From a virus (taxonomy: Duplodnaviria; Caudoviricetes): a stretch of 37,505 nt of DNA. Position 1 is the first letter of the stretch, and each line of letters begins with the position of its first letter. Of this stretch, positions 10,659 to 24,142 are shown in pieces. The position numbers were made by a program, and so were the translations under genes. Under the pieces are notes generated by a model, which worked only from the letters and a program-made list of their open reading frames with translations, made no database searches and was not told the origin of the DNA. The stretch covers positions 1-37,505 of IMG/VR virus record IMGVR_UViG_3300044674_002913; one strand, 5' to 3'.

Positions 10659-11201
10659 ATGCTTAAAGCAGCAAAATTAGATTACAATCTTCAACAGTTT
10701 ATTGATGCAGATTATACTGTTCATAGTGGCAGTTGTATCAGTCATCAAGTACACGAACTCAAAGACATACATGAAAAATTTGGCGGTTTTCCGGACAGTT
10801 ATGACATGGGCAACACACTTATTAGACAGTTGTGGTGGACACGAGAGCAGTTGGACTTTGAAAAACTAGGTGCGCAACTTGGCATAGAAGTTGTCACAGT
10901 AAGTAGTATACTACAACCTCCAGGCAATATTATTCCTGTACACAGAGATACGTTCTTTCAAATAAAACATGCATTTCCAGATGACACTAGATCGAAAGTA
11001 AGGGCAAACATGTACTTGGAAGATTGGCATGTTGGGGAAATTATCCAATATGAAAAAGACAAAGAATGGCACAATAGCACACACTGGAAGGCTGGCGAAG
11101 GATGGATCTGGGATAGCAGTCATTTACATTTGAGTGCTAATGCAGGTATGACCAACAAGTATACACTTCAAGTCAGCGGCTTTTTAGTAAAAGATCAGTA
11201 A
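10659..11201 (+). CDS. Cupin/2OG-Fe(II) oxygenase-like protein (Asp/Asn beta-hydroxylase-like)
   Basis: QPPGNIIPVHRD (HxD) and distal HLSANAG. Confidence 0.75.
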   Translation: MLKAAKLDYNLQQFIDADYTVHSGSCISHQVHELKDIHEKFGGFPDSYDMGNTLIRQLWWTREQLDFEKLGAQLGIEVVTVSSILQPPGNIIPVHRDTFFQIKHAFPDDTRSKVRANMYLEDWHVGEIIQYEKDKEWHNSTHWKAGEGWIWDSSHLHLSANAGMTNKYTLQVSGFLVKDQ

Positions 11202-12090
11202 CAGCATCTACTCTACTTTTTACATCAATACTATAGAGAACATTTTGATTGTGTAACAATCTTTGTTTGCAGTGTGCATGTAGTTTGGGTAAATCCATTC
11301 TACTCACTTCTTCAATCAATGCACACACTGCACGAAGTCGTTGTGCAGTGTTGTTTATAGTATCGTAACTTTCATCCCACAAATCTCCAAAAGTTTCATA
11401 CCCTTGATCTTTAAGTAATCCTAAACTACCAACAGGGCCTGCAATTATAAACATTGTAAGATTACCAATAGCACAGTAGGTTTTTTCTGTAAGCATAAGT
11501 GGTGGCACTTGTGTTCTGTAGTGTTGAAAAGTTGTTTCTGTGCTTATAGTAATACAACTATCCTGCCATATATCAGACAAGTCTCTATTATGTGCACCTA
11601 CAACAGGATATGCATCGTAGGGTATTATGCTATCTATACTATGTGCATAGTCTATATCATGTTGTGTAAATCCTAGCGCACTATGAAACCAACTACCATC
11701 ACATGTGTTGTTTACATAACTCCAGTTACACTTATCTAGCACATTTGCTTTGTGCAATGCTGCGATTACACTGCGTCTATGCCCAACGTCTTTAAGTTGT
11801 GTGCAGTTAAATAATTTAGTCTTTGTATCATTCCAAGTTTTATCGGGCCATATACGACTGCTAATAATATCATGTATACTAAAGTAGTTGGGTAAATTGT
11901 AGTTGCCTGTAACATATAAAAAGTCTCTTTTTATGCTGCTAGTATCTTCCATAAATGCCTCTTCGGCGTGCCAAAGCAACAACGGCAAGTCGGGTCTATC
12001 AGGTATGTTAACAAAGTCTTCTTTATCAAAAACTGCATGGTAAATGTAATCACATTGAGGATAATATCCGAGGTAATCAAAAATATTCAT
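11173..12090 (-). CDS. Glycosyltransferase-like protein (GT-B C-terminal motif)
   Basis: ISTET, LTEKTY and GYETFGDLWDESYD motifs; start set at MNIFDY. Confidence 0.6.
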   Translation of the reverse strand: MNIFDYLGYYPQCDYIYHAVFDKEDFVNIPDRPDLPLLLWHAEEAFMEDTSSIKRDFLYVTGNYNLPNYFSIHDIISSRIWPDKTWNDTKTKLFNCTQLKDVGHRRSVIAALHKANVLDKCNWSYVNNTCDGSWFHSALGFTQHDIDYAHSIDSIIPYDAYPVVGAHNRDLSDIWQDSCITISTETTFQHYRTQVPPLMLTEKTYCAIGNLTMFIIAGPVGSLGLLKDQGYETFGDLWDESYDTINNTAQRLRAVCALIEEVSRMDLPKLHAHCKQRLLHNQNVLYSIDVKSRVDAVTDLLLKSR

Positions 12091-12120
12091 AAACTTTGAT
12101 TTACTTTCGGAATAAATTAC

Positions 12121-12149
12121 TTGATATTTGTTTGACTGCATGCTATACT
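12121..12149 (+). promoter_or_regulatory. Sigma70-type promoter with extended -10
   Basis: TTGATA-17 bp-TATACT preceded by TG. Confidence 0.65.
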
Positions 12150-21642: not shown

Positions 21643-23454
21643 ATGGCTTGCGTAACAGCAGTTGTAAGTTTTGCAGGAATGAGTGCGCTAGGCGGTAGTC
21701 TAGGTGGATTTGGTCTTGGTAACTTGGGCGGCGGCATTGCTAGTTCTCTTGGGGGTCTTGCGAGTGCAGCTGGGCCGCTAAGTTCACTTGCTAGTATATC
21801 CAGTGTTACTAGTGCAATACCGAGTATTGGTGGTTTGGCTGCTTTACCTGGTGGTGCGCTTGGTAATTTAACAAGCACAGTTGGCGGCAGTCTCACTAGT
21901 TTTGGCAGTGGTATTGCTGGTGGTGCGCTTAGTAATGGTATAGGCAGCGCATTTAGCAGTATAGGTGGTGGAGCATTCACAAGTGCGTTAGGTAGTCATG
22001 CTGGTGATTTATTTGGTAGTGGTCCTTTGCAAGCATTTCAAACATTTAATGCGGCAGAATCGTTTAGTGGAATTAGTCAAGGGTTAGCAGGAAGTCTTCA
22101 GGGTGCACTGGACGGCGTAAATTTTGGACAAGCAGTAAGTAGTTTAACATCAACATTGCCTATAAATGGTGACTTTGGGAATTTCCTAGGATCAAGTATA
22201 GGCGATATCCAGGGCATGGTTACAAATGGACTCAGCAGTTTAACTAGCGTGGTTGGAGATATGCCAAACTTTGCAGGAGAACTTGCCAGTTTAGGCAGTG
22301 CCTTTGATTTAGGTAATCTTACAGAGTTTGGAAATCCAGGGCAACTTATACAACAAATTAGTGCTAAAGGCGGACTGGATATCACAGGCATTACTAGTGC
22401 TCTAGGCGAAGTAGGACTAGGAGATGTAAGTATTAGTAGTTTAAGCAATCCTATCTTTAATGCAGAGCTAGGCGATGCATTAGGGATGATTGGCAATCCA
22501 CAGATGATTGCAAATGCACAGGCTTTGTTGGGTAGTAGCGTTGGCGGGTTATCTAGTTTAGCTGACTTTACTGACCTGGCAAAAGTTATGCCAGCAAGTT
22601 TTGATAGTATCCCGTTTGATGATTTTAGCCAGTTAGGTGAGCACCTACAGGGCGTAGAACTAGGAAGCCTTGCTAACACTAGTGAACTTGGTGGACTGTT
22701 ACAAAGTGTTAGTACTGTAGATATCCCGAGTATTATTAATAATACCCAAGTTATTGCACCAGATGCATTGAGTAATATTACTAGTAATTTTTTAGGTGGC
22801 AGTGGAGCAACTGGTGGAATACTAACATCTGATCTAATGGGCTCAGTGGGAGGTATTGGACTTACTGCTCAGTTTGCATCTTATAAGGATGCTATTGATT
22901 CAATAGATACAGCAGGAGGGTTCAGCGCAGTTAACTCATTATACAGTCAGTTAAACGCAGGTATTAATGGAGACTATTTGGATGTTCCCGGAGATCCCGC
23001 TACTAGTACAGATATTACTGATCCTTTTGATAGTAGTGTCTACACAGATTTAGATAGTTTTGTTGAAGCCAAACAAACTCAAATTGAGGGTGCTATACAG
23101 GCAGTAGCTACTGCTTATCCAACTGAAACAGCAGTAGCACAAGGCAGATATGGTGATATGCAACGCAAAGTATATCAGGAAAAACTTCATGCAGGCAAAA
23201 CCGATCTACAGTTAGAACTTAGAGATGAAAGGCCTGATAATGCATATCATTTTGTAAGTAGTATGCAGGACCGTGCAAGCCGTAGTGATGTAATTGCTAT
23301 TGTTGAAGGTATGCAGGATCAAGCCGTAAATAATGGCGACATTTATGGTGAGTATTGGCGTGCATATACAGCAGAATCTAAAAATCGTAATCGGGCGGAT
23401 GAGTATAATATTCGCTGGCGTGGCGAACACCTGGATGAATTTGAAGTAATCTAA
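21643..23454 (+). CDS. Gly/Ser-rich virion (baseplate/tail-associated) protein
   Basis: Follows PAAR; AGGAG SD; long G/S/L-rich region. Confidence 0.6.
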   Translation: MACVTAVVSFAGMSALGGSLGGFGLGNLGGGIASSLGGLASAAGPLSSLASISSVTSAIPSIGGLAALPGGALGNLTSTVGGSLTSFGSGIAGGALSNGIGSAFSSIGGGAFTSALGSHAGDLFGSGPLQAFQTFNAAESFSGISQGLAGSLQGALDGVNFGQAVSSLTSTLPINGDFGNFLGSSIGDIQGMVTNGLSSLTSVVGDMPNFAGELASLGSAFDLGNLTEFGNPGQLIQQISAKGGLDITGITSALGEVGLGDVSISSLSNPIFNAELGDALGMIGNPQMIANAQALLGSSVGGLSSLADFTDLAKVMPASFDSIPFDDFSQLGEHLQGVELGSLANTSELGGLLQSVSTVDIPSIINNTQVIAPDALSNITSNFLGGSGATGGILTSDLMGSVGGIGLTAQFASYKDAIDSIDTAGGFSAVNSLYSQLNAGINGDYLDVPGDPATSTDITDPFDSSVYTDLDSFVEAKQTQIEGAIQAVATAYPTETAVAQGRYGDMQRKVYQEKLHAGKTDLQLELRDERPDNAYHFVSSMQDRASRSDVIAIVEGMQDQAVNNGDIYGEYWRAYTAESKNRNRADEYNIRWRGEHLDEFEVI

Positions 23455-23456
23455 TC

Positions 23457-23606
23457 ATGAAACATTTAAAAGAAACGGGCTATACATATTTCGCCCATAT
23501 GCGTAGAGCATTTTGTATAGCCTTTGTCCTTGTTGTCCATGGTATTGTGCCGGGCATTTGGACAGACAAAGCAACTCAAATGCTTTGTAATCCTGACACA
23601 GAATAA
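23457..23606 (+). CDS. Small membrane protein, DUF6356-like (49 aa)
   Basis: Not in ORF track; MKHLKETGYTYFAHMRRAF...VVHGIVPGIW. Confidence 0.6.
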   Translation: MKHLKETGYTYFAHMRRAFCIAFVLVVHGIVPGIWTDKATQMLCNPDTE

Positions 23607-23607
23607 G

Positions 23608-23638
23608 TTGACAAAACTCCTAAAATAGTATATAAATA
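23608..23638 (+). promoter_or_regulatory. Overlapping sigma70 and T4-late promoter for tmRNA
   Basis: TTGACA-17 bp-TATAAA; the -10 also reads TATAAATA. Confidence 0.7.
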
Positions 23639-23644
23639 AGATAC

Positions 23645-24025
23645 AATTTGATGATACGAATTGAATACAGAACTGGACCGGGGGGCAGTACCCCGCGCCT
23701 CCACCATAAACACATGAGGATATAATGAATTGGGATTGGCATTGGATTAGTTGGTTTAAAGGAACTCCTTTTCAATGGGGTGAATTTAGATTAAACAGTG
23801 GGAATCCTTATAAAAGTTATAGATTTGGGCCATTACTTATTCGTGTGTTTATGAGGGGGGCGAACTAGGATCGACAGGCTGGAATAGATGAGTGGAGAAT
23901 TGTCGGATGACTCCGTTATTGGTCAATTTAGTAAATGCAAACGATAATGCAAACTATGGAGATTACGCTTTAGCAGCATAATCTTTCGGGGTTCGGTGGG
24001 TTCCTAGCAACAGAATACCCACCAC
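23645..24025 (+). ncRNA. ssrA: Circularly permuted two-piece tmRNA (alphaproteobacterial type); outer ends approximate
   Basis: Acceptor piece CGGGG-GGCAGTA-CCCCG-CGCCTCC-ACCA ends 23706; coding piece starts GGGGGCG at 23856 (G3:U70); tag ANDNANYGDYALAA* at 23937-23981; 3' hairpin GGTGGG/CCCACC. Confidence 0.93.
23725..23868 (+). CDS. 47-aa Trp-rich ORF in the tmRNA intervening segment
   Basis: GAGGA SD; MNWDWHWISWFKGTPFQWGEFRLNSGNPYKSYRFGPLLIRVFMRGAN*. Confidence 0.5.
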   Translation: MNWDWHWISWFKGTPFQWGEFRLNSGNPYKSYRFGPLLIRVFMRGAN

Positions 24026-24142
24026 TTAACATAATGTGGTAAATATATCACATTTTTATAATTACTTTAAGATAGGACGTAGAACCACTGTCTACATAAC
24101 TCTAACTAAATAATTGTGAAGTATTAAAAGTAGACAAATTAA

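Follow-up and report, generated by a model that had tools for sequence, protein, structure and literature searches.

The permuted, two-piece tmRNA, in which the pieces are separated by an intervening segment (IVS), is known from Alphaproteobacteria (Rfam families RF01849 and RF04321) and, according to the accessible part of PMC9004378, from marine myophages, e.g., the Methylophilales phage Melnitz. That article describes the ssrA gene of Melnitz, and the word “intervening” does not occur in its available text. Regarding what such segments may contain, the accessible sections of a 2025 tmRNA survey mention no more than two cases, a tRNA-Ala and a repetitive element, with a single IVS for each, and record that group I introns of tmRNA carry homing endonuclease genes (PMC11915505). 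IVS with ORFs of the S23p family have been described in the 23S rRNA of Leptospira, Coxiella, Brucella and Xanthomonas (excerpts of PMC4990558). ORF-bearing spacers of stable RNAs are, in themselves, already known; a slot of this type in phage tmRNA is apparently undescribed, and we found no description of protein genes in a tmRNA IVS in the literature that can be searched without subscription.

The tmRNA gene and its intervening segment

We have analysed a stretch of DNA from a marine phage, 37,505 nt long (ca. 37.5 kb, the window hereafter). It contains genes of phage type, i.e., nrdA/B, a tail spike-like and an endolysin-like gene (the top cultured match of nrdA is 62%), and a single tmRNA, called by ARAGORN as permuted at 23614-24072 and matched in Rfam by both RF01849 (123.3 bits) and RF04321 (116 bits). 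As in the permuted alpha-type molecules, the acceptor piece lies 5' of the coding piece and T-arm, CCA and paired acceptor strands are all present, while the tag frame (ANDNANYGDYALAA) ends in the proteolysis motif ALAA. The features of the locus are the following:

23457..23606, plus strand: upstream neighbour, a 49-aa DUF6356 gene (PF19883, above cut-off)
23608..23637, plus strand: likely tmRNA promoter, TTGACA, 17 nt, TATAAAT, overlapping a TATAAATA motif (window-wide pattern match)
23643..23706, plus strand: tmRNA acceptor piece with T-arm, 3' acceptor strand and CCA at 23704-23706 (ARAGORN; Rfam, RF04321 starting at 23643)
23705..23718, plus strand: 5' arm of the closing stem of 14 pairs, covering the GAG of the Shine-Dalgarno (SD) sequence (folding)
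23707..23855, plus strand: IVS of 149 nt, the cargo slot (sequence, Rfam)
23716..23720, plus strand: SD-like GAGGA, 4 nt 5' of the ATG at 23725 (sequence; present in most family members)
23725..23868, plus strand: gene of a 47-aa protein, conserved core codons 1-42, four beta-strands predicted (sequence, selection, model)
23840..23853, plus strand: 3' arm of the closing stem and, at the same time, coding sequence of Arg40-Val41-Phe42-Met43 (folding)
23856-23862, plus strand: 5' acceptor strand GGGGGCG (sequence)
23856..24026, plus strand: coding piece of the tmRNA, with the tag frame at 23937-23981; RNase P is predicted to cut before G23856 (ARAGORN, Rfam)

The promoter pattern is unique in the window, but it was derived from that very site and its chance figure is no test; a stricter promoter scan of the window did not list it. 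Among 100 viral loci with a promoter-like motif, 90 had it at most 120 nt from the CCA. The overlapping motif is one that we take to be the T4 late promoter consensus. The position of the RNase P cut is predicted from the tRNA-like geometry together with the available portion of PMC3985003. Elsewhere in the window, two ORFs had no PHROG match, a 603-aa Gly/Ser-rich protein at 21643-23454, upstream of the tmRNA region, and a 322-aa ORF at 11173-12141 on the minus strand, amid an otherwise plus-strand run of genes.

A preliminary description of this DNA, made from the sequence alone, had reported the 149-nt IVS with its GAGGA and a 47-codon ORF with five Trp that stops in the coding piece, and all the coordinates agree with the sequence. 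Codon 44 spans the predicted cut (23855/23856), and the last codons and the stop (TAG, 23866-23868) are supplied by the stem arm and the coding piece. Length alone is a borderline argument for this ORF (p = 0.03-0.05 against dinucleotide shuffles in five family members of 149 nt), and it is the comparative sequence data below, rather than any single sequence, that take it beyond chance. The start is overlapped by a short upstream ORF (Met-Arg-Ile-stop), which was considered and dropped, as it is found in the window but is missing from some relatives.

Selection on the ORF family

Relatives were collected by protein search (26) and by DNA scans (39, 62, and the best 80 of 113 loci), in sets that overlap. 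The 185 tblastn hits, in 182 loci, gave 78 distinct contexts with full flanks and 61 distinct cores. We limited the selection test to codons 4-38, since one clade starts two codons later and codons 39-42 lie within the stem. On the tree of the 61 cores, 122 of 184 changes were synonymous, against 48.5 +/- 5.6 under the null (3000 random placements, maximum 68), and the changes were distributed 23/25/136 over the three codon positions. Restricting the analysis to the copies that reside in an IVS (42 variants) gave a similar picture, with 96 synonymous changes out of 144 (null 35.8, about +/- 5; omega about 0.17), and on their terminal branches 41 of 64 were synonymous when 14.7 were expected. 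Codons 4-9 and 29-34, which fall outside the first two DNA search patterns, had 30 synonymous changes in 46 (11.9 expected). Not one of the 61 cores contained an in-frame stop, with about 11.6 stop-making changes expected, while each of the other five frames was interrupted in 56-61 of them. The copies found outside the IVS are under similar selection (omega 0.23). Only one of the 78 contexts, L279, had a stop at codon 3, together with a damaged CCA, a count to be read knowing that decayed copies are under-sampled by the design of a homology search. Conservation of the ORF and dN/dS among phage permuted tmRNAs was the check that the preliminary description had proposed, and it revealed purifying selection. 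We conclude from these sequence comparisons that the IVS ORF is a real gene, selected as protein.

The encoded protein

A profile search brought together 42 proteins, the distant members of which have 33-57% identity. These distant homologs terminate at or just past the position of Arg-Val-Phe 40-42, each with its own stop; they occupy 28 distinct contexts, all with own stop and 25 of them without tmRNA, and in L549, L552 and L588 they are placed in the tmRNA leader, 3' of the promoter and 5' of the acceptor piece. With an alignment of 33 sequences, AlphaFold2 predicted four strands over residues 2-42 (2-7, 16-24, 27-34 and 37-42) with pLDDT 93 and pTM 0.66; an earlier model, made with a shallow alignment, was of low quality (pLDDT 51). 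There was no match to any PHROG or Pfam family nor among cultured phages, and the best PDB sequence hit had E = 0.23. Atlas matches, at 0.79-0.82, were all unnamed. Foldseek against PDB and BFVD returned nothing at E <= 0.001, a weak test for a model of 44 residues, and the best VIA Z, 4.3, was among generic beta-sheets. The “hidden small protein” suggested in the preliminary description is, therefore, supported by purifying selection, by a confident fold model and by homologs down to about 33% identity. Most likely this small protein has an accessory function in the phage, one that does not depend on tagging.

The closing stem

CATAAACACA (23705-23714) can form Watson-Crick pairs with TGTGTTTATG (23844-23853) along its whole length, as the preliminary description had noted, and the stem reaches the SD, with 14 pairs by folding. 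Compared with shuffled sequences the whole IVS folds with z = -3.86 and its interior alone with z = -0.58, so that the excess is due to the closing stem alone. A conserved RNA structure within the ORF was, accordingly, rejected. Among 53 long IVS sampled independently of the stem, 49-53 have a pair at positions 4-12, of several types, and 30 have one at position 3. Within the family of the window, a clade with a synonymous change in the codon of Val41 also has the corresponding change in the 5' arm, which indicates that the same bases serve both protein and stem. The pairing of the SD GAG and the AUG is predicted to be closed in the precursor and also in the excised IVS, while in the nascent RNA the predicted probability of being unpaired is 0.18-0.89 over GAGGA and 0.08-0.98 over the AUG. 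With an SD and AUG that are predicted to stay partly paired even in the nascent RNA, an order in which translation comes first, and folding and cutting later, is no more than plausible. The 14-bp stem could also be a target for RNase III.

The ORF might instead be untranslated and merely incidental to some conserved element of RNA or DNA, given that close copies are highly identical in nucleotides and that other IVS hold structured RNAs (see below). This we regard as very improbable, because the changes concentrate at third codon positions, the folding energy of the interior is ordinary, the homology extends at the protein level to about 33% identity and relatives at new contexts come with a new SD.

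A slot with many different cargos

We scanned with a T-arm pattern viral contigs (120 of about 310 stretches) and genomes (120 of about 6800), and the IVS could be parsed in 114 of the 120 loci of each set. The viral set gave 87 distinct IVS with a median of 74 nt, 28 of them of at least 100 nt, while the 115 distinct bacterial IVS had a median of 33 nt and a maximum of 95, i.e., none reached 100 nt (Fisher p = 3e-12, for sequences that are related and so are not independent events). Very long IVS are under-counted because of short flanks beyond the first 80 loci and a parser reach of 700 nt. A second viral scan, biased to the stem of the window (120 of about 300), brought the total to 164 distinct viral IVS. 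Among these, the ORF was longer than in shuffles (p <= 0.05) in 26 of the 57 IVS of at least 100 nt vs. none of the 64 of 60-99 nt. The 57 long IVS formed 36 clusters, and sorting the cargo ORFs by hand gave 22 families, including those of L552 and Melnitz; in round numbers, there are about 20 unrelated ORF families. In eight of the nine other ORF families with several members pN/pS was 0.00-0.53, from two to six sequences each (the alignment of the FKEKCR pair retains an unaligned gap), and the ninth had a single change.

The cultured phage Melnitz is itself an example. Its IVS (MZ577097, L542:1597-1761) has a GGAGA and a 54-codon read-through ORF, unannotated in GenBank and unrelated to that of the window, which is kept in two viral contigs (L604, L605) with synonymous and Arg/Lys changes. 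DUF6356, encoded directly upstream of the tmRNA in the window, is found inside the IVS of L028 and L060 (PF19883 above cut-off for L060), which suggests, at the sequence level, a traffic between the upstream site and the IVS. Other arrangements were observed. L552 (1617-2130) has an IVS of about 510 nt with a short closing stem, missed by both ARAGORN and Rfam. Its ORF of 152 aa weakly resembles HNH proteins (E = 0.004, below cut-off) and is possibly a homing endonuclease in a tmRNA spacer. The cargo ORFs of L071, L109, L113, L432 and L531 begin 7 nt past the CCA and have no SD, and an excised IVS would thus be nearly leaderless. There is also a second slot in the leader, between promoter and acceptor piece, with small ORFs in L549, L552, L588, L003, L025, L072, L082 and L116; those of L549, L552 and L588 are distantly related to the protein of the window, and other families occupy the leader too.

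The IVS of 60-105 nt have a higher G+C and, in several families, compensatory changes. Rfam, run on 40 loci with IVS of this RNA type, found only tmRNA, tRNA and one sub-threshold cspA match. One cargo of 69-89 nt (L469, L485, L502, L465, L518, L072, L489) has two crossing helices with compensatory changes, read by eye as an H-type pseudoknot (L469 and L072 had no Rfam match). Apparently structured and conserved are also a family formed by L475, L476, L484, L523 and L154, and further families in L426, L493 and L503; in L430, L449, L454, L491 and L506; in L014, L433 and L530; and in L424, L436 and L488, all of them without Rfam match in the members scanned. In L104, whose IVS has 110 nt, visual inspection showed a T-loop motif like that of tRNAs; Rfam made no tRNA call there. 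All together, the sequences indicate that the phage tmRNA IVS is a general and exchangeable cargo slot, one that the preliminary description had missed and that appears to be new.

Movement of the cargo

When the 49 contexts located in an IVS were compared with one another, 244 pairs had an ORF identity of at least 95%, and in 117 of these the tmRNA pieces were less than 75% alike, with different tags, although overall the two identities are still correlated (r = 0.44). The reverse situation is found in L086, where a 60-nt acceptor piece identical to that of the window is followed by an unrelated IVS of 82 nt, and in L020 (97%), which contains a different ORF. Among the 78 contexts 21 were outside an IVS; in eight of them part of the tmRNA 5' end has remained, a sign of movement from the tmRNA outwards, and six are flanked by duplications of 10-27 nt of the gene start. 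The duplicated region includes SD and start, and was seen at the insertions of L130, L157/L158, L263, L264, L268 and L269; L157/L158 has two cassette copies 814 nt apart. Copies of the ORF were found directly upstream of the tmRNA promoter in L219, L278 and L301, and two cassettes in tandem within the IVS in L154 and L155. Acceptor and coding pieces are also shuffled among phage tmRNAs (L231 and L234; L242, L261 and L277).

Such mobility could mean that the IVS is only a safe harbour, an insertion-tolerant loop where mobile small genes hitch-hike with no benefit from being expressed with the tmRNA, and are read weakly or mainly off longer upstream transcripts. The free movement to gene starts, with target duplications in 6 of 21 contexts, the lack of relation among cargos and the HNH-like ORF in one IVS would fit this, as would the ORF of the Coxiella 23S rRNA IVS, apparently untranslated in vivo (PMC4990558, accessible text). 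We nevertheless consider it unlikely, as selection is strong on the IVS-resident copies, terminal branches included, unlike in the decaying Coxiella ORF, the stems are re-matched to each cargo, and such cargo is not collected in the bacterial IVS, whose sequence is just as free.

Read-through and the order of events

The geometry of the non-stop RNA that the preliminary description expected from a cut at 23856 is correct, i.e., 43 codons and no stop. Its claim that translation and tmRNA maturation are mutually exclusive is too strong, since the stop is present in the unprocessed precursor and both could occur in turn on one molecule. From the same cut the preliminary description suggested a feedback sensor. 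Such a sensor would be ArfA-like: the spacer RNA, cut and lacking a stop, would be the chief message, and its tagged product would be destroyed unless trans-translation fails, whereupon the intact protein of 43 residues would build up and affect translation or the host. The predicted domain would indeed be whole after the cut (the last strand ends at residue 42 in the model, and the cut comes after codon 43), distant homologs lie on tmRNA transcripts in two more lineages (L549/L552, L588) and the accessible part of PMC3985003 provides a precedent in the regulation of ArfA via RNase III cleavage. Read-through was the rule in the 57 tmRNA-linked contexts (51, with five stopping inside the IVS and one without a coding piece following), a fact that would also fit a selected non-stop design, and it was found in 10 of the 22 cargo families, the other 12 stopping inside the IVS.

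Several observations make this sensor improbable, and as the purpose of the arrangement it is possible but finds no support here. The stop-less message is not conserved across the window's family, given the five contexts that stop in the IVS and the 21 of 78 that lie outside it under similar selection, and both states coexist within one family (L071 stops in the IVS; L453 and L466 read through). Distant homologs end after the last strand and have their own stop in all 28 contexts, 25 of which show no tmRNA. By cargo family, the stops are found before the stem arm in seven, within it in five, at +13 in eight and at +30 or later in two, and the read-through frames (5/8/2) are compatible with chance (p = 0.17 vs. 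equal thirds). Moreover, the stem over the SD persists in the cut spacer.

What is seen in the data is a gene with selection on its protein, a covarying closing stem, a mismatch between the relatedness of cargo and tmRNA, and many unrelated cargos. The explanation that we prefer, and think probably right, is that of a conserved small-protein gene in a stem-closed tmRNA slot of varying content, likely translated from the unprocessed precursor before folding and excision. Expression of the cargo would be driven by the tmRNA promoter; a ribosome would load on the nascent RNA and leave it on reaching the coding-piece stop; the closing stem would then hide part of the SD and the tRNA-like domain would fold; and removal of the spacer by RNase P and 3' trimming would end expression from that molecule. 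A ribosome caught on a cut spacer would presumably be rescued and its product tagged. Phages may exchange cargos by recombination in the conserved tRNA-like flanks. As for the origin of the read-through, the last codons native to the gene (Arg-Val-Phe), matching the 3' arm, may have been joined to the stem with loss of the own stop, and this match would then be a simple capture junction.

RNA libraries yielded contigs in which the IVS ORF has relatives, in all four runs compared (chosen because they contain this stretch, and sharing at most 0.27 of the words), and one contig covers acceptor piece, IVS and coding piece; contigs from RNA libraries may be DNA.

Implications

The tmRNA spacer has been regarded as discardable and is masked by gene callers, hence the unannotated ORF in Melnitz. 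The comparisons presented here point to a place in abundant aquatic phages where selected small genes, and structured RNAs that Rfam does not match, are repeatedly lodged, and tmRNA spacers could be mined for new small proteins and RNAs. This is likely a natural case of one transcript that acts both as mRNA and as precursor of a stable RNA, with bases coding twice. The cargo slot is also a possible reason why phages retain tmRNA genes. Melnitz, growing on OM43 strain H5P1, offers a cultured system open to testing.

A bolder interpretation, for which we would give rather low chances, is that the tmRNA precursor of aquatic phages is a programmable expression cassette, with read-through output gated by tagging and an all-beta protein that acts on the trans-translation machinery. 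If true, the abundant tmRNA transcript would give a burst of small protein or of stem-protected small RNA per tmRNA, dozens of cassettes would form a shared pool swapped via the conserved tRNA-like flanks, and one all-beta protein family would be tied to tmRNA transcripts at three positions.

Comparison with known systems

The tmRNA of the window has the order acceptor piece, IVS, coding piece, the tRNA-like domain and a tag ending in ALAA in common with those of Alphaproteobacteria and of Melnitz, which is its closest cultured match (77%). The difference is in the spacer, short in bacterial permuted tmRNA and, in the window and its viral relatives, housing selected protein genes and structured RNAs. 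Protein genes nested in a removed part of the precursor are also found in the group I introns of tmRNA, but those introns are self-splicing and lie in the T-loop of a one-piece tmRNA, and the cargo of the window is not a nuclease; no group I intron core was detected in the window, where the T-arm is intact and Rfam gave no intron family match.

With ArfA, as described in the available text of PMC3985003, the locus shares an RNase cut that would yield a non-stop message and a truncated product that keeps its folded domain. It differs in that the cut is the maturation site of the tmRNA itself, the stop-less state is not conserved in the family and no role in ribosome rescue is indicated.

The 23S rRNA IVS is similar in being a stem-closed insert with an ORF in the precursor of a stable RNA, sporadic and horizontally moved, and in being excised without religation, a trait that for the tmRNA of the window is predicted. 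Here the host RNA is tmRNA and removal is expected by tRNA end-processing enzymes and not by RNase III. While the 23S rRNA IVS carries one protein family, a four-helix bundle, the tmRNA slot has about 20 unrelated families, that of the window being predicted as all-beta, and in contrast to the ORF in the Coxiella IVS, which is decaying, the ORF of the window's family is under purifying selection.
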